64,000 bases of DNA from an uncultured virus (IMG/VR IMGVR_UViG_3300021957_000020) (lineage: Duplodnaviria; Heunggongvirae; Uroviricota; Caudoviricetes), in IMG/VR virus record IMGVR_UViG_3300021957_000020; one strand, given 5' to 3'. The position numbers and the translations under genes are program-made. Positions 3,192 through 37,123 of the stretch are shown one piece after another (position 1 is the stretch's first letter; each line of letters starts with the position of its first letter). The notes beneath the pieces are model-generated. The model was not told where the DNA came from, searched no databases, and saw nothing but the letters and a program-made list of their open reading frames with translations.

Positions 3192-3417
3192 GCATTTAAA
3201 GACTTTTTATTGGTGGATAGTAAATAAGTTTAATCCACGATTTACAGTTACAGTTTCCTTTGATAACCAATGGGGTAACGGTGACGATCAACAGTATGTT
3301 CACGTGAGAAAAATAATCAAAGCAAATTTTAAAGAATTAAAGTTTAGAACAGATGATAAAAGAACTGTGCATATCAAAGGTATGCAAGGTTTAAGATATA
3401 AAATAGAGGACGAATAA
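3166..3417 (+). CDS. Hypothetical protein
   Basis: Likely GTG start after AGGAG; stop overlaps the next ATG. Confidence 0.55.
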   Translation: MKHLRKLLKHLKTFYWWIVNKFNPRFTVTVSFDNQWGNGDDQQYVHVRKIIKANFKELKFRTDDKRTVHIKGMQGLRYKIEDE

Positions 3418-3785
3418 TGCAACAATTTTTTATTGCAATCATATTAGTACTAGGACTGAGTACCTGGTGGTTATATGGCCAAAACCAAACATTTAAAGCA
3501 AACCAAATTAAACTCGAAGCTGCTGTAGAAGAACAGAAACAAGCTATGGAGATTATGAAAGAGTCTTATGAAAAGCAAGGTAAAGCTTTAATGAATATGA
3601 GTAAGCAAAATGCTCAAATTGAACAAGAAAAAGCAGAATATTTAGCCATATTCTCTAGGCATAATTTAGACTTACTTGCTCTGAAAAAGCCTGGACTCAT
3701 AGAATTACGATTTAATAAAGCAAGTGAAGCAGTGATGGAGGGACTTGAAGATGATACAGAAAAACTTAGTAATCTTAATAGGTAG
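3417..3785 (+). CDS. Putative inner-membrane spanin (Rz-like)
   Basis: N-terminal TM helix followed by a long coiled coil; overlaps a downstream lipoprotein gene. Confidence 0.65.
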   Translation: MQQFFIAIILVLGLSTWWLYGQNQTFKANQIKLEAAVEEQKQAMEIMKESYEKQGKALMNMSKQNAQIEQEKAEYLAIFSRHNLDLLALKKPGLIELRFNKASEAVMEGLEDDTEKLSNLNR

Positions 3786-4290
3786 TATCTTTTTATTTAC
3801 AGGATGTAGTACCTTAGGACTCTTAGGTCCTAGACAAATAGAGACAGTATCAAAACCGATACAAATAGATATTATGCAACCCGATCTTCCAAGACCTGTT
3901 GAACTAACAGCACCGCAATGGTATGTCGTTTCAGAAGCTCGTATTGCAAATCCATGCAAAAAGTCTTTATCATTCGAGCCTAAAAAGTTTGATGAGAATA
4001 AGGTAGAACAACTTAAAAGACCTAAAACATGCGATAAAGCAGATAAAGAAAATCCAGAATGGCCAGATGGTTATACATATCTAGATAGATTTATTGATGA
4101 AATGAAAAAACAAAACAATGGAGACATTGTATTTGTCGCAACTTCAGTTGGTGACTATAAAGTTATGGCTGAAGATATGCAAGAACTTAAAAGGTACCTT
4201 AAGCAATTAGGAGAAGTAGTAGTCTATTATAGAGACGTTACAATGCCTAATGGTGATAAGGGCGCCGGCGCTGCTATTAAGAAAAAATGA
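3751..4290 (+). CDS. Putative outer-membrane spanin lipoprotein (Rz1-like)
   Basis: Lipobox LFTGC, Pro-rich segment, C-terminal helix; overlaps the Rz-like gene. Confidence 0.65.
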   Translation: MIQKNLVILIGSIFLFTGCSTLGLLGPRQIETVSKPIQIDIMQPDLPRPVELTAPQWYVVSEARIANPCKKSLSFEPKKFDENKVEQLKRPKTCDKADKENPEWPDGYTYLDRFIDEMKKQNNGDIVFVATSVGDYKVMAEDMQELKRYLKQLGEVVVYYRDVTMPNGDKGAGAAIKKK

Positions 4291-18644: not shown

Positions 18645-18815
18645 ATGAAACATATGATCAAATGGCTGAAAATCTCAGCCGCAATCAACGTGTATCTATC
18701 AATCATACTTACTTTTGTTTTAGTAGCATTAATGATTGATATTGGTTTGGATTCTTATTGGCATTCAAATGATTTCATGGAACAATTCTTGTTACAAAAG
18801 AATGATTCTAAGTAA
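18645..18815 (+). CDS. 56-aa membrane peptide (not in ORF track)
   Basis: MKHMIKWLK then a hydrophobic helix. Confidence 0.55.
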   Translation: MKHMIKWLKISAAINVYLSIILTFVLVALMIDIGLDSYWHSNDFMEQFLLQKNDSK

Positions 18816-19047
18816 ATACACAAAAACAATTCAATTACATGTAGGTCTTATTACAGGCCTTCATGTTATTGTCTTATCAATTTTATCATACCCATTTTTC
18901 ATGTTAGTCTGTGCAATATTTTGTACTTTAATAGGATTAAAATGTCAATACGAGTGGGTAACTATTATGGAAGAGCATGAGAATGATTATCATCTTATTA
19001 TAAATAATAGTAGGGATAGTATGGCAGATGGTCTACTATCAAAATAA
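18802..19047 (+). CDS. Small two-TM membrane protein
   Basis: Start MILSKYTK; two hydrophobic segments. Confidence 0.55.
   Translation: MILSKYTKTIQLHVGLITGLHVIVLSILSYPFFMLVCAIFCTLIGLKCQYEWVTIMEEHENDYHLIINNSRDSMADGLLSK
18999..19006 (+). promoter_or_regulatory. Late promoter for the lipoprotein gene
   Basis: TATAAATA. Confidence 0.65.
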
Positions 19048-19052
19048 AAGCA

Positions 19053-19370
19053 ATGGAGAATATAATGCAAAATTTATTTACTCTGTTCGTCGGATTAGTT
19101 CTTATTACGAACTGTGCTTCAATTGGAAGCGTCGTAGAAGGAACCAAGGAGTTTACAACTGGAGTTGTTGACGGTGCTGTAAAAGGTACTTCAACTGTTA
19201 TTTCAGCTGTAGCTTCGGATGTAGTATCCACTGGTGAATTCGTTGTTGAAACAGCTGTTGATGTAGGTAAAACTGCAGTCAATACTGGTACTGGAGTTGT
19301 TCAAAAAGCAGCTAACAGGATCGACGAAGAAACTGACAAACTACAAACTCCTCAACCTGAGGGAAAGTAG
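19053..19370 (+). CDS. Putative lipoprotein (short isoform)
   Basis: Signal peptide with lipobox-like LITNC; amphipathic V/G/T repeats; start may be the second Met (19065). Confidence 0.75.
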   Translation: MENIMQNLFTLFVGLVLITNCASIGSVVEGTKEFTTGVVDGAVKGTSTVISAVASDVVSTGEFVVETAVDVGKTAVNTGTGVVQKAANRIDEETDKLQTPQPEGK

Positions 19371-19519
19371 CTTGGTCTCTCTTTCCACAATATCCTAAAC
19401 AACAAAAGGATATCGAAAAAGAGAGAGTAGTAGTTGGAGAAGCAACTAATGATATAACAGTTATCATAAAAATTGTGAAACGCTACTGTACGCAATATCC
19501 GGAAGAGTGCGAACAATAA
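19361..19519 (+). other. Candidate -1 programmed frameshift site with 50-aa extension ORF
   Basis: G GGA AAG just before the stop; 9+7-bp hairpin at 19376-19426; -1 frame open to TAA at 19519 with no ATG. Confidence 0.7.
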
Positions 19520-19522
19520 ACT

Positions 19523-19549
19523 AAAGGGATCTTTTAGGTCCCTTTTTTT
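19523..19549 (+). terminator. Rho-independent terminator
   Basis: AAAGGGATC/GGTCCCTTT hairpin followed by T-run. Confidence 0.85.
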
Positions 19550-19570
19550 ATGTCTTAGCGTTACAGCTAT

Positions 19571-19609: not shown

Positions 19610-19864
19610 ATGGCAAGTACAATTAAATTATTAGGTTCAGAAGGCAATTTAGGCTCAGCATCTAATGTAGGATTTGCAAAAGTGGTAAGAGTATTGAACA
19701 ATAAAACAGCTGTTCAGGCAATCACTTGGAAAAATGCAGGTGGAACAACTTTAGGAACAATTACTTTGAAAGCAGCAGAAGTAGCTTATATAGAAAAAGC
19801 TTCTACTGATACATTAACTGGTGTCGCAACTTCTTTAGCTGTAGGTGTTGCTTATAGTAACTAA
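19610..19864 (+). CDS. Small beta-rich hypothetical (probable virion) protein
   Basis: 84 aa; RBS GAGG; late promoter. Confidence 0.65.
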   Translation: MASTIKLLGSEGNLGSASNVGFAKVVRVLNNKTAVQAITWKNAGGTTLGTITLKAAEVAYIEKASTDTLTGVATSLAVGVAYSN

Positions 19865-20160
19865 TGGAAGATGTCTTTACACTTATCTCCGAAGTAGGTT
19901 TACCTATAGCTGGAGCTTTAGTAATGGGATTCTTCATTTTTACAATCATCAAACAGATTTTAGAAGGAGTCGTTGATGATATTAAGACGCTTACAATGTT
20001 TTGTTCTAGTTTAGAAAATAGAGCAAGAACAATGAGTAATGAAATGGTCAAGATAGACTTACTCGTAAGTAGCGCATTAGAATTAAGACCAGATATCGAA
20101 AGAATAGCTCGCGCAGAGAACTTTATCGAAGATGGTAAACTTGACGTAAGAAGAGATTAA
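19864..20160 (+). CDS. Single-TM coiled-coil membrane protein
   Basis: LISEVGLPIAGALVMGFFIF; paralog-like to next gene. Confidence 0.7.
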   Translation: MEDVFTLISEVGLPIAGALVMGFFIFTIIKQILEGVVDDIKTLTMFCSSLENRARTMSNEMVKIDLLVSSALELRPDIERIARAENFIEDGKLDVRRD

Positions 20161-20161
20161 T

Positions 20162-20422
20162 ATGGATATTGCGCAATTAATTGCCGATTTTGGCTTTCCA
20201 ACAGTAATGGTTGTAGGTTTAGGCTATTTTGTTTACTTTGTATATAACTTTATTCAAGAACATCTAGATCCAGCAACAGAAAAAATGCATTTTCAATTAA
20301 TTCGAGTCATTGATCAGATGAGAATGTTAGATCAAGACCTTATAAGATTACAACAAAAAGTAGACGTGGTATTGGAATACAGAGAAAATGAAAAGAAAAA
20401 GAGTAGACAAAATGAAGAGTAA
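20162..20422 (+). CDS. Single-TM coiled-coil membrane protein (holin-like N-terminus)
   Basis: LIADFGFPTVMVVGLGYFVYFVY then coiled coil. Confidence 0.7.
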   Translation: MDIAQLIADFGFPTVMVVGLGYFVYFVYNFIQEHLDPATEKMHFQLIRVIDQMRMLDQDLIRLQQKVDVVLEYRENEKKKSRQNEE

Positions 20423-25324: not shown

Positions 25325-27154
25325 ATGAAATATTTAACAAGCATTTGGACAACAATTATATTGGGTATAACACTTTTAGGTGTAAGAATATCTGATCCTC
25401 AGTTAGTTGAACAGTTTAGGTTAAATATATTCGACCAAGTAATACAATCAATGCCAGTAGAACATTCTAATGATATAGTGTTGTTGAACATATCCGAGTC
25501 TTCACTCGAAGCCTATGGGCAATACCCTTGGCCGCGTCAGAATCACGCAGCAGTGATTTCTGATCTGAGGAACGCAAATGCTGGTATGATTGGGTTCACT
25601 ATTATGTTTCCAGAGGCTGACAGGTTTGGCGGTGATGAAGTTTTTGCTTCTTGGATTAATGGTAATGGAATAATACTTGCACAAGACGCTGACGAAAATG
25701 GAAGAAGTTCTAAAGCACCTTATGTAGGGTATGCAACATTTGGTTATTCGGGTGATATACTAGATCTTACTTATCGATATAAAGGATTAGTTACTAACAT
25801 AGAAGAGTTAGAGAAACATTCATGGGGAGTAGGATTACTTAATGGTGCGCCAGAAGTAGATAATCAGACGCGTAGGATACCATTAATGTCACAAGTCAAT
25901 GGGAATGTCTACCCATCATTTGCACTAGAAACGGTACGAGCACTACAAAATAAGAAATCGTATACTGTTAAATTAAATGAATCAGGAATAGAATCTATTA
26001 TACTTAGACCTTTTATAATACCTACTGATGAAAGAGGAAGTATCTGGTTAAAGTGGAATACACATTTTGATAGCTATGATTATGGAAAGCCTTTACCAGA
26101 TTTAAAAGGAAAGACAGTTATAATAGGAGTAACGGCTAAAGGTATATCACCTCAGATTACAACTCCAGCTGGACTTCTATATCCTCATCAATTACAAGCA
26201 AATGCTTTGCAGACTATAATATCTGACTCTCCGATATCTCGTCCTCAATGGACATTTGCTGCTGAGTTGGGAATGATTCTGATTGGGAGTCTGCTGATAG
26301 TTCTAGCTGTTTATTATCTACCGATCTGGATAGGACTTGTGTTCTTCGTCGGTTCCGCTGCTGCCGTATGCTACGCTGTTTATTACGCCTGGTACGAATT
26401 TTCTATACTCCTCGATTTATCAGCTTCTCTATTAATATATATACTTTTACTCACCTCATCGAGTTTCAATAACTTTTACAAGCAATTTGTTTTACGACAG
26501 CAAATAAAGAAACAGTTTGGCACATATGTATCTCCTGATCTTGTTAAGCAACTACAAGAAGACCCATCATTACTTAAGCTTGGTGGTGAAAGAAAAGACA
26601 TGACCTTTATGTTTATGGATATATGTGGATTTACTCCAATATCAGAACACTATAAGAATAATGACGATCCAGAAGGTCTTGTAGTTCTTATAAATAATTA
26701 TTTAGATACCATGACAAAGATTGTTTTAAAGAATGGTGGAACAATAGATAAATTCATGGGTGATTGCATTATGGCATTCTGGAACGCTCCATTGCCATGT
26801 GAAGATCATCCACAAAAAGCGATAGATACCGCTAGGGAAATTACAGATGCAGCTGACATACTTATTAAAGAACTCGAAAATCAAGGCTTGCCTAGGATTG
26901 ATATTGGCATTGGTATCAACACAGGTACTTGCATCGTTGGAAACATGGGATCCGAAGAGCGGTTTGACTATTCCGTTATTGGCGATGCCGTCAACCTTGG
27001 GGCTAGACTCGAAGGACAAACTCGCAATTACGATGGGGTTCGAGTGTTGCTGGGCCCAGAAACATATCAACGCAGTAAAGACGGAAGCCTCACTTTTGTT
27101 GATTCCATCCAAGTTAAAGGAAAGTCAGAAAAGGTGGACATTTACACTTGTTAG
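25325..27154 (+). CDS. CHASE2-domain class III adenylate cyclase
   Basis: GQYPWPR CHASE2 motif, three TM helices, FMDICGFT, DKFMGDCIM, GIGINTG, DYSVIGDAVNLGARLE, VKGK. Confidence 0.95.
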   Translation: MKYLTSIWTTIILGITLLGVRISDPQLVEQFRLNIFDQVIQSMPVEHSNDIVLLNISESSLEAYGQYPWPRQNHAAVISDLRNANAGMIGFTIMFPEADRFGGDEVFASWINGNGIILAQDADENGRSSKAPYVGYATFGYSGDILDLTYRYKGLVTNIEELEKHSWGVGLLNGAPEVDNQTRRIPLMSQVNGNVYPSFALETVRALQNKKSYTVKLNESGIESIILRPFIIPTDERGSIWLKWNTHFDSYDYGKPLPDLKGKTVIIGVTAKGISPQITTPAGLLYPHQLQANALQTIISDSPISRPQWTFAAELGMILIGSLLIVLAVYYLPIWIGLVFFVGSAAAVCYAVYYAWYEFSILLDLSASLLIYILLLTSSSFNNFYKQFVLRQQIKKQFGTYVSPDLVKQLQEDPSLLKLGGERKDMTFMFMDICGFTPISEHYKNNDDPEGLVVLINNYLDTMTKIVLKNGGTIDKFMGDCIMAFWNAPLPCEDHPQKAIDTAREITDAADILIKELENQGLPRIDIGIGINTGTCIVGNMGSEERFDYSVIGDAVNLGARLEGQTRNYDGVRVLLGPETYQRSKDGSLTFVDSIQVKGKSEKVDIYTC

Positions 27155-27434
27155 ACAGCCAACAAAAAATCAGTTAGTAACATACTACACTCTTCAATTC
27201 TTAGATGTTTACACTACCGCAAGAGGTGTAAGAGATTCTAGAGTAAGAGAACTTAATCCAATATATGGCGAAAAACCAACGCCAGGTAAGCTTTTATTAG
27301 GCAAATCAATTACAACAACATACTTGTTTAATGCGAATCCTACTGCCAATGATATACAATTCATGAACAATCTTCTTCTTATGACTGTTCTTAACAACGT
27401 CGACGTTCTCGAATCACAAAATATAAAATTATAA
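26847..27434 (+). CDS. Hypothetical membrane/exported protein overlapping the cyclase 3' end (start uncertain: 26847, 26985 or 27033)
   Basis: C-terminal LQFLDVYTT...ELNP region lies outside the cyclase; no in-frame start near 27154. Confidence 0.55.
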   Translation: MQLTYLLKNSKIKACLGLILALVSTQVLASLETWDPKSGLTIPLLAMPSTLGLDSKDKLAITMGFECCWAQKHINAVKTEASLLLIPSKLKESQKRWTFTLVRQPTKNQLVTYYTLQFLDVYTTARGVRDSRVRELNPIYGEKPTPGKLLLGKSITTTYLFNANPTANDIQFMNNLLLMTVLNNVDVLESQNIKL

Positions 27435-35403: not shown

Positions 35404-35433
35404 AGGGACTCTTAAAGGTGAGTCCCTTTTTTT
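35404..35433 (+). terminator. Rho-independent terminator at the convergence of gene 32 and the tail block
   Basis: AGGGACTC/GAGTCCCT stem followed by T-run. Confidence 0.85.
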
Positions 35434-37123
35434 ATCTGTTAGTTAGACCAGTGGATATAGAATCAACAGCTGGCGGCGTAGTGATAACATAATTATCGCC
35501 CATTTTAGTTGAATTGTTTGTTGTTGCAACTGCGTTTACTATTTCAGCTGGTGTTGGACCAGCAGCTCTTTCTTCAGCTTTTAATTCAGTTGATTGTTTG
35601 TTAAGGTTTTCTCCTTTTTGAGATGCTGCATTTTTATTTTCTACATTCTGAATTGCTTCATCTACACCAGTATCCATTGTAAGTTTACCTTTAAATGACC
35701 TAATACCTGCAGCAATATCATCGCCTTTAAATGGTATTTTTTCTGCTAATTTTGCCAAGCCTTCTAATAATAATCGGATTGGAGCTGTTAATGTATTGAA
35801 TATTGTACCAACTAAGACTTTAATCATTCTACCAAAGTCAAACGATCCTGTTTCGTCAAGCATAGCATTAAAGAAACCTAGAACTGTATTTTTAATTTTA
35901 TCAAACATACTACCAATAAGTCCTGCAATGCTAAATGATGCAAGCGTTTCTTTAAATCCATCAAATCCTAGTTTACCTGCTATAAAACCAACAGCTGATT
36001 TTAATAAGTCAAGTGGTATACCAATAAGTCCTACAACTGCTCCTTTAAGACCACCGATGACTCCAGCAAATAGCTTAGTGAAAAACCCACCTTCTTGCTT
36101 AGTAAACCCGTCTATCGATCCTTTGATTGCATCAACAGCAGTAAGAAGTATAGTAAGAGGCAAGAATAATCTACCAAGTACTCGACCAACTCCTTGGAAT
36201 GCTGTAAATACAGTCTTAAAGAAACTACCTAAACTTTTAAGTACTCCACCTGCGCTTTTAGCGCCTTTTGCAGTACTCTTTGCTGTATCGCTAACAAGTC
36301 CAAATTGTTTACCTATATCGCTAAAAGCTTTACCAGCGTCTGCAAAAGCTCCTGTTATAAAAGCAACACCTTTACCAAATACACTTCCAATAGTTTTAAA
36401 AAATCCACCGACTTTCGAAGACATAGCAGTAATGCTACCTCTTATTCCTTTAGTAGCATTCATAAAGATATTCTTTTTAAGAGTAAATGCTTTAGTAACT
36501 CTACCAAAGAAATTGGCTGTAGACATTAGAATACCAGCCTTAAATGTTTTAAGACCTTTTGTGCCCATTGTAAATGATGCTTTAAACCGTTTAAAGAATT
36601 CAGCGAGAGGTTTAGTTATACTATTTGTAAATGCAGTTTTAACAAATTTAGGAACAAGCTTCTTTAAAGCAAGACCTAATCCTTTTACAAAGAGCGTTAT
36701 AGCATCTGCAATACCAAGTATAAAACCTTGTAAAACAGCTCCTATAGCTATTACTATACCACCTACAATTCCAGCTGCAACTTCACCAGGACCTTCAAGC
36801 TTATCGCCAGATTTCTCTGTGTTTTCAGATATCTCTCCAAGTAGCTTTAAAGTCTCTTCAGCTCTTTTATTAGCTTCTTTTTGAGCTTCAATATCATCAA
36901 ATTTATTGCCAGCTAGCTGATCAGCCAAGTCTTGCATTGCTTTTAATGAATCGCCTTGTAGGTTATGACTTTTATCGGCCATGACCATAGCCATTTGAGC
37001 TTGTAATTGGGCAGAGTCCTTTGTTGCTTTACTGACTTCAGCTTGCTCTTTAAGTGTATCTGTTAGAATTTCGAAACCAGACTTTTCAGCCAATGGTTTC
37101 TTTGTTTTCTTTTCCTCTGCCAT
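35432..37123 (-). CDS. Tape-measure/baseplate hub protein (gp29-like)
   Basis: 563 aa, helical, G/A/F/K amphipathic repeats with hydrophobic segments; position downstream of gp26/gp51. Confidence 0.65.
   Translation of the reverse strand: MAEEKKTKKPLAEKSGFEILTDTLKEQAEVSKATKDSAQLQAQMAMVMADKSHNLQGDSLKAMQDLADQLAGNKFDDIEAQKEANKRAEETLKLLGEISENTEKSGDKLEGPGEVAAGIVGGIVIAIGAVLQGFILGIADAITLFVKGLGLALKKLVPKFVKTAFTNSITKPLAEFFKRFKASFTMGTKGLKTFKAGILMSTANFFGRVTKAFTLKKNIFMNATKGIRGSITAMSSKVGGFFKTIGSVFGKGVAFITGAFADAGKAFSDIGKQFGLVSDTAKSTAKGAKSAGGVLKSLGSFFKTVFTAFQGVGRVLGRLFLPLTILLTAVDAIKGSIDGFTKQEGGFFTKLFAGVIGGLKGAVVGLIGIPLDLLKSAVGFIAGKLGFDGFKETLASFSIAGLIGSMFDKIKNTVLGFFNAMLDETGSFDFGRMIKVLVGTIFNTLTAPIRLLLEGLAKLAEKIPFKGDDIAAGIRSFKGKLTMDTGVDEAIQNVENKNAASQKGENLNKQSTELKAEERAAGPTPAEIVNAVATTNNSTKMGDNYVITTPPAVDSISTGLTNR

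Follow-up and report, generated by a model that had tools for sequence, protein, structure and literature searches.

A programmed -1 ribosomal frameshift very probably yields two N-terminally identical lipoproteins, late in infection, from a single gene of a marine T4-like phage, as judged from a 64,000-nt stretch of its DNA (IMG/VR record IMGVR_UViG_3300021957_000020; hereafter, the window) and from related sequences. The window is a fragment of such a phage: it carries baseplate, nrdAB and gp32-type genes, and its gp32 is 54% identical to that of phage C48C1 and 52.5% identical to that of pelagiphage HTVC008M, the nearest named matches, while no tRNA genes were found within it. The elements of the predicted recoding cassette are the following.

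18999..19006, + strand: T4-type late promoter TATAAATA, a match to the consensus
19053..19370, + strand: 0-frame lipoprotein precursor, 105 aa from the first start, with lipobox Cys21, 11-residue amphipathic helical repeats and an acidic C-terminal segment
19361..19367, + strand: slippery heptamer G GGA AAG in X XXY YYZ phase, directly 5' of TAG 19368-19370
19367..19519, + strand: -1 frame extension of 50 aa (the tail), consisting of a variable linker, an amphipathic helix and a C-x6-C loop (YCTQYPEEC)
19376..19426, + strand: 3' stem-loop, a putative stimulator made of two stacked helices inside the tail coding sequence, with a possible outward extension to about 19372/19429
19523..19553, + strand: intrinsic terminator-like hairpin (19523-19545) with a U-tract, 4 nt past the -1 stop

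The predicted recoding cassette of the window

Read in order, the cassette consists of a late promoter, the lipoprotein gene, a heptamer abutting its stop codon, a stem 4-8 nt further on and a -1 open reading frame ending just before a terminator; this layout was read from the sequence, and the slip mechanism was inferred from established knowledge. The stem would slow ribosomes that hold tRNA-Gly on GGA and tRNA-Lys on AAG, and in some passes these tRNAs would re-pair on GGG AAA. Slipped ribosomes would then read ...PEGK-VAWSLF... to the second stop, the predicted transframe junction peptide being of the type PEGKVAWSLFPQYPK.

Direct reading confirmed that the gene ends CCT GAG GGA AAG TAG and that GGGAAAG occupies 19361-19367 in slippery phase, as the first-pass annotation had reported. 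We take G GGA AAG to be the heptamer of the lambda G-T frameshift. The 50-codon -1 frame without an ATG, running from VAWSLF to YCTQYPEECEQ and a TAA at 19517-19519, was likewise found as described, together with its end at 19519 just before the terminator (hairpin 19523-19545) and with both stems of the hairpin, in which 19376-84 pairs with 19418-26 and 19390-96 with 19407-13. A further claim, that a TGA closes the -1 frame directly before the site, is correct for the window (19358-19360) but did not extend to the family, in which this frame is open for 2-21 codons upstream of the site (2 codons in 37 of 146 cases). G_GGA_AAG is shift-prone and is used in the g-t genes of HCTV-5, and A_AAA_AAG is, like G_GGA_AAG, highly shift-prone in E. 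coli (passages of PMC5009743). Among the other ORF ends of the same loci, which give the chance level, an in-phase heptamer was present in the last three codons in 29 of 906, one of these 29 being a truncated copy of the lipoprotein gene itself.

The spacer between heptamer and stem measures 8 nt, or 4 nt if the bulged extension forms. The predicted folding energy of the hairpin is -20.6 kcal/mol, with a z score of -1.5 on 86 nt (18 of 200 shuffles were as good), and the 65 nt after the stop gave a z score of -3.7. An indel joining both frames was absent from the contigs that span the slip site, namely two from RNA libraries (19299-19486 and 19293-19494) and one of 570 nt from an unlabelled run, and an assembly error in the window is thereby removed; contigs drop rare variants. 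The RNA-library contigs cover the lipoprotein gene and not its flanks, but the runs had been selected with this stretch, and neither start nor strand nor level can be read from contigs, so that no conclusion is drawn from this coverage.

The promoter TATAAATA was identified with the T4-type late promoter consensus, and ATAAATA lies no more than 200 nt upstream of the lipobox cysteine in 57 of 64 representatives with a tail and in 18 of 33 without one, at a background of 0.11 per 200 nt. Since a GGAGA stands just 5' of ATG 19065 and the ESM Atlas record begins at residue 5, this ATG is probably the true start, which would give precursors of 101 and 151 aa and mature chains of 85 and 135 aa from Cys21. 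Thus, of the isoforms of about 105 and 155 aa proposed initially, the two predicted sizes 50 aa apart stand, and the lengths are likelier to be 101 and 151 aa. By eye and by alignment, a hydrophobic signal peptide ends in the lipobox cysteine, which is invariant in 96/96 sequences of an alignment trimmed at that residue and in 16/16 of another. It is followed by AS in 58, AT in 24, ST in 12 and GT in 3 of 97 representatives. The hydrophobic moment of the lipoprotein peaks at 98 degrees and relatives differ in length by whole 11-residue repeats, while the structure model is helical at low confidence (pLDDT 50). Judged from these sequences, the mature short form would be a lipid-anchored chain of 11-residue repeats. 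The gene was single-copy in 30 of 30 records.

Co-occurrence of slip site, stem and tail

At least 383 loci in addition to the window were gathered from viral, metagenome and genome collections using lipoprotein and tail queries, two of the homologue scans contributing the best 80 of 138 and the best 80 of 162 loci. Of the resulting 384 sequences, 377 had a lipoprotein match (the 7 loci with none were left out), and after 8 truncated matches had been set aside, 369 complete genes gave 213 distinct 3' regions. L124 and L259, which fitted the loose cysteine pattern, were reclassified by eye as tail-less. The 213 regions listed then comprised 141 with a heptamer lying 0-2 codons upstream of the stop and a -1 tail containing [YF]C-x5-7-C, 5 with G GAA AAG and -1 tail, 5 whose tail is in the +1 frame, and 62 with neither; a heptamer without a tail occurred in none of them. 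Hence, an X XXY YYZ heptamer in 0-frame phase precedes 141 of 146 -1 tails, the remaining five having G GAA AAG. The heptamer sequence varies across the family (A AAA AAG 104, G GGA AAG 22, C CCA AAA 13, C CCA AAC 1 and G GGA AAC 1; n = 141) and its phase is constant. AAG serves as second slip codon at 126 of 141 sites, whereas the gene bodies encode lysine by AAA 693 times and by AAG 131 times.

Loci found with the lipoprotein query alone (n = 132) gave a similar division: 64 had heptamer and -1 tail, 5 had G GAA AAG, 1 was of the +1-frame type and 62 had neither. In the reciprocal test, 163 of the 176 loci listed from the tail query alone had an upstream lipoprotein gene, a heptamer and the -1 phase; the others were 5 loci of the +1-frame type, which also have the lipoprotein gene upstream (168 of 176 in total), 5 cut by contig ends and 3 short spurious matches. 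Homologues down to 24-50% identity retain a slippery heptamer in phase, and their open -1 frame holds two cysteines that never vary, in favor of the first-pass reading. Because 62 of 132 genes found with the lipoprotein query are tail-less, the tail is dispensable in some lineages. On a tree built from 51 representatives, four changes are required to explain the tail-less state, each along with the heptamer, and well-supported branches force them. G GGA AAG is dispersed over seven rows, with at least five changes forced; this tree is based on 77 columns of a repeat protein and has no true root, and it does not distinguish gain from loss. The size and completeness estimates of four tail-less loci, L279, L273, L251 and L271 (G010, G019, G020 and G026), imply genomes of about 55-60 kb; tail-less copies therefore accompany the curli module in much smaller phages as well, possibly the podoviruses of PMC9599517.

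The tail evolves as a protein in the -1 frame only. Substitutions among 97 distinct tail cores fall on codon positions 1, 2 and 3 in shares of 30, 5 and 64%, and stops interrupt the core in 0 of 97 cases in the -1 frame versus 89 and 88 of 97 in the other frames. Both cysteines of the C-x6-C pair, which the first-pass annotation had noticed in the long form, are invariant in 60 of 60 tails. An ATG, GTG or TTG 5' of the tail helix is absent in 125 of 146, so that a conserved coding frame exists there with no start of its own. Tails are 31-68 aa long, indels in their linkers preserve the frame, and the tail's stop is coupled to the ATG of the next gene in 39 of 151. In the structure model, a helix spans residues 29-43 and pLDDT reaches 88-89 over residues 31-50. 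The model thus suggests a variable charged linker, encoded by the hairpin, followed by a helix closed by the C-x6-C loop, and the spacing of the cysteines, with a proline between them, would suit an intramolecular loop. Within the C CCA AAA clade (L143-L166), the tails have extra hydrophobic strands on both helix flanks, beta-alpha-beta by pattern, which suggests a bigger folded module than in the window's clade.

Concerning the stem, its position is conserved across the family and its sequence is not. The first stem begins 6 nt past the heptamer in 26 of 61 representatives and 5-7 nt past it in 40 of 61, as compared with 9 of 61 for a control position. The predicted structure thus lies 5-9 nt downstream, which is the spacing range described for stimulatory structures (passages of PMC5009743). 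The check for covariation found some compensatory changes in two clades: one has 93.7% pairing, and 4 of its 9 pairs are compensatory, and the other has 99.2% with 2 of 10 (0 and 3 of 500 shuffles scored as high for covariation, counts that ignore relatedness). The window's own hairpin showed a compensatory change at 1 of 23 pairs among 5 close sequences. A downstream hairpin with z < -2 was found in 19 of 40 tail-less versus 33 of 55 tail-bearing genes, and therefore stability alone does not mark a stimulator. The post-stop hairpins of tail-less genes are often terminator-like, and by sequence stimulator and terminator may interconvert. A Shine-Dalgarno-like stimulator upstream of the site (the dnaX/IS911 subtype) was not apparent, as 3 of 61 tail-bearing versus 7 of 33 tail-less genes fell below -4 kcal/mol.

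Six loci (L215, L217, L378, L299, L375 and L412) carry the same tail in the +1 frame, with 68-100% identity over the last 78 nt. GAA AAG AAG-stop closes the gene in all six, with a spacer of 5 nt to the conserved basal stem, and their -1 relatives have A AAA AAG-stop with a 6-nt spacer (10 of 10). Changes in the +1-frame tail fall mainly at third positions (85/23/120), and no start codon is common to all. At such a site, the tRNA-Lys on the first AAG would re-pair on AAA two bases back, and the second pairing (AGA) would need wobble or an empty A site; as a -2 slip site the sequence is therefore imperfect. The phage Mu shift is -2, and in an HIV cassette a shorter spacer raised the share of -2 events (passages of PMC5009743). 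On balance, the sequences somewhat favor a real -2 shift in these six loci over separate initiation or +1 shifting, and a switch from -1 to -2 could have come about through AAA to AAG in the site plus a spacer 1 nt shorter. Tails of this lineage, whose loci lie on the reverse strand, also have an extra conserved C-x4/5-C pair in the linker.

Alternative explanations of the open frame

The tail might instead constitute a small gene in its own right, translated from a non-ATG start or by translational coupling, beside which the heptamer would be incidental. An ATG, GTG or TTG does lie upstream of the helix in 21 of 146 tails, and four of the six loci with a +1-frame tail have an ATG 50-68 nt upstream of the stop, but there is no family-wide start, the sole common start codon in the window's -1 frame is a GTG that leaves 13 codons, and the tail frame of L412 has no ATG, GTG or TTG at all. 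Together with the presence of the heptamer in 141 of 146 -1 tails and in 0 of 62 tail-less genes, and with the little use that a signal-less cytoplasmic peptide would presumably have for an invariant cysteine pair, this makes a separate gene very improbable.

A change of frame by RNA polymerase slippage, in which the ribosome is not involved, has a precedent in the envelope protein TssM, of which transcriptional frameshifting is reported to give two length variants (part of PMC4256274), and many homologues do have A-runs of 6-8 nt at the site. Nevertheless, the window and 21 other regions have G GGA AAG and 14 have C CCA AAA/C, with no long run; the codon phase is retained, as is a 3' stem with ribosome-sized spacing, and the RNA-library contigs contain no indel, with the same reservation about rare variants. 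We regard this mechanism as scarcely credible. Equally hard to sustain is the idea that only an RNA structure, such as a terminator or stability hairpin, is being maintained downstream, or that the segment represents an assembly artefact or the remains of a gene, with the open frame as a by-product: terminator-like hairpins at the same place in tail-less relatives and the variable N-terminal half of the tail, which overlaps the hairpin, would fit it, but the helix and cysteines are conserved 3' of the hairpin with changes mainly at third codon positions, the same arrangement recurs in 146 distinct regions with linker indels in frame, and contigs cross the site with no indel.

A weak search of 8,000 scored candidates of 120-2000 aa yielded no in-frame full-length fusion. 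One candidate, P0044, was rejected as such a fusion, as its middle is missing and its end is identical to that of the L412 tail, which points to a deletion or mis-assembly.

Relation to known systems and possible role of the two forms

As in lambda gpG/gpGT and its tailed-phage analogues, the proposed ribosomal slip occurs near the 3' end of a short gene and adds a C-terminal extension to a minority of the product. Such tail-chaperone analogues vary in site and direction, with -1, +1 and, in phage Mu, -2 shifts (passages of PMC5009743; also of PMC10885494 and PMC12846349), and the family's C_CCA_AAA/C is close to the shift-prone C_CCA_AAG of PMC5009743. Unlike lambda G/GT, the lipoprotein is exported and encoded outside the tail genes in the window, its extension of 31-68 aa has a cysteine pair, and the 3' stem is positionally conserved. 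Instead of lying between tail tube and tape measure genes, it has as neighbors lysozyme, small membrane proteins, csgF/G, the cyclase and DNA polymerase/UvsX-like genes, and in place of homology to the cytoplasmic TAC family there are a lipoprotein signal peptide, no Pfam match and no significant PHROG match. By its sequence, the cassette appears to work like lambda G/GT with a dnaX-like site, outside the tail-chaperone family by position, localisation and homology. The dnaX cassette has a stem-loop and an internal Shine-Dalgarno element. E. coli dnaX (tau/gamma) shares with the family A_AAA_AAG, the commonest site here (104/141), followed by a stem (passages of PMC5009743); by contrast, the shift here lengthens the protein, no internal Shine-Dalgarno-like element was found, and the gene is unrelated. 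The capsid and major-tail extensions of T7, T3, A2, PSA and A118 are similarly minority subunits with an extra C-terminal module (passages of PMC5009743), whereas here the carrier is a membrane lipoprotein and the module a short helix plus disulfide loop, not an Ig-like domain.

Database searches placed neither part in a described family. Pfam gave no match for lipoprotein or tail; in PHROGs the best lipoprotein hit had an E value of 0.076, and 2 of 60 tails gave three matches at 0.002-0.007; and NCBIfam scores for the lipoprotein were below cut-off. The small helical lipoproteins NF038104 / DUF6726 resemble it in having a lipobox followed by Val/Ala/Thr/Gly-rich amphipathic repeats, at scores far under cut-off (E 0.003; one at 16.8 bits versus 50). 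To our knowledge, no frameshift tail is known in those lipoproteins. A PDB sequence search returned no significant match, Foldseek with the tail model returned nothing at E <= 0.001 in PDB or BFVD, and the C-terminal peptide of CP12 matched the tail at E 0.92, a lead only. No homologue was found among 50,697 GenBank phage records with three different family members as queries, nor in cellular genomes with the lipoprotein query. A genome scan with the tail found L380, a full lipoprotein-heptamer-tail arrangement on a 9.6-kb MAG contig that is probably phage DNA, and three spurious short matches.

The window carries csgF, csgG, curlin-like, FecR and CHASE2-cyclase genes, which it shares with the curli-like (T8SS) module of pelagiphages and Melnitz (parts of PMC7029224, PMC9004378 and PMC9599517). 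The lipoprotein gene had been placed directly upstream of this curli operon; this proved wrong, as about 870 nt separate it from csgF (20388), including its own terminator, a new TATAAATA late promoter (19571) and three ORFs, one of 84 aa and two for small membrane proteins. A module gene occurred in the flanks of 49 of 97 representative loci (39 of 64 tail-bearing, 10 of 33 tail-less), and in other representatives the lipoprotein gene adjoins the DNA polymerase gene or sits elsewhere. All nine tail-bearing contigs >45 kb carry csgG and CHASE2, as do several tail-less ones, and a 99%-complete tail-less genome with the lipoprotein (G007) has neither CsgG nor CHASE2. Linkage to the module is hence frequent, not obligatory.

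Several neighboring genes deserve mention in their own right. At least 24 of 97 representatives, in varied genomic contexts, have a 56-aa membrane ORF (MKHMIKWLK...; window 18645-18815) on the 5' side of the lipoprotein gene. Directly before csgF (19864-20422) are two tandem paralogous small membrane proteins, both phrog_18771 with weak holin-family matches; in PMC9599517, genes at that position are named histidine kinases, for which a length of 86-98 aa is no obvious fit. A candidate overprinted gene (26847-27434, + strand; late promoter at 26689) consists of a 195-aa ORF that begins with an ATG and a sequence resembling a signal peptide, shares the final ~100 codons of the CHASE2-cyclase gene (25325-27154), read in the +1 frame, and extends beyond them as a DUF5658-like domain. 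In three diverged phages (L384, L387 and L388), that frame stays open for 199-225 codons and holds an internal TATAAATA, and in the other scorable cyclases it is open at this point for only 12-48 codons. Residues 44-187, the overlapped CC motif included, align with a stand-alone gene in L079 (pair E 4e-14), and by sequence such stand-alone copies could derive from the overprinted frame, or it from them. Elsewhere, a 362-codon open frame (35796-36884, + strand), antisense to a tape-measure-like gene (35432-37123), is probably a by-product of codon bias.

E. coli lipoproteins are sorted according to the residues after the cysteine. Both forms would be lipidated at Cys21 and, with Ala-Ser after it, probably sorted to the outer membrane. 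There, the short form may serve as a 3/11 amphipathic helix, held by its lipid anchor and forming a coat or bundles on the membrane, and the rarer long form would join its assembly and display the disulfide-stapled helix as a binding handle, the frameshift setting handle density as gpG/gpGT does for lambda tails. This assignment of a short-form coat with a minority handle, drawn from sequence features, has in our estimate slightly less than an even chance of being right. The likeliest partners of such a handle would be envelope proteins of the curli-like/cyclase module, although we consider this attribution doubtful. The YC-x2-NP-x2-C motif of the tail recurs in a neighboring secreted DUF5658-like protein, the gene for which (L096:3069-3536 and relatives) often begins at the tail's stop codon. 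A [YF]C-x6-C motif is found near the N-terminus in 15 of 34 distinct proteins of this kind, and the tail matched their profile with a probability of 90% over 13 columns, the segments having been picked by motif, so that the E-value is circular.

A competing reading of function, which leaves the frameshift itself untouched, is that the long form is a covalent cross-linker acting through intermolecular disulfides, in a spanin-like or receptor-blocking manner. Disulfide-linked spanins and receptor-blocking phage lipoproteins are precedents, and such a role would agree with late expression, with the presence of a lysozyme gene some 830 nt upstream and with weak matches to holin families downstream, as well as with the lysis-timing function proposed for the phage CsgGF pore (part of PMC9004378). 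Against it, a probable i-spanin/o-spanin-type pair lies elsewhere (3417-4290; by anatomy, with nothing over the Pfam cut-off) and no i-spanin gene adjoins the lipoprotein gene, lysozyme is adjacent in 4 of 97 representatives only, and the modeled C-x6-C spacing with proline rather suits a loop within one chain. We therefore consider the cross-linker unlikely, if worth keeping in mind.

Starting from the minority binding handle, a broader proposal is that recoding is an evolvable control of the ratio of the two forms in a widespread marine-phage lipoprotein family, with a site re-written several times, four joint losses with the tail, one switch from -1 to -2, and a disulfide-stapled helix docking the lipoprotein coat to the curli/cyclase module; taken as a whole, this is a speculative view that we judge rather improbable.

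Known phage frameshifts mostly concern tail chaperones, capsid or tail proteins (passages of PMC5009743), and certain T4-like phages lack a frameshift even in the tail chaperone (part of PMC10885494, citing Vladimirov 2022). The main texts of the three curli-module papers (PMC7029224, PMC9004378 and PMC9599517) do not contain the words "frameshift" or "lipoprotein", and searches of the main texts of openly available papers gave no description of the gene or its frameshift. The mechanism is classical, and no report of it in such a lipoprotein gene was found. The case extends phage frameshifting to an exported lipoprotein of T4-like phages. The tail escapes gene callers, so that protein databases lack a conserved product of common marine phages. 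The finding also adds a candidate component to the unexplained curli-like module of these phages. Furthermore, the family provides dozens of natural cassettes that differ in heptamer and stem, along with losses that occurred in nature and a probable switch from -1 to -2 accompanied by a one-base change of spacer, and if that switch is true, it would provide a natural test set for the determinants of -1 versus -2 slipping.
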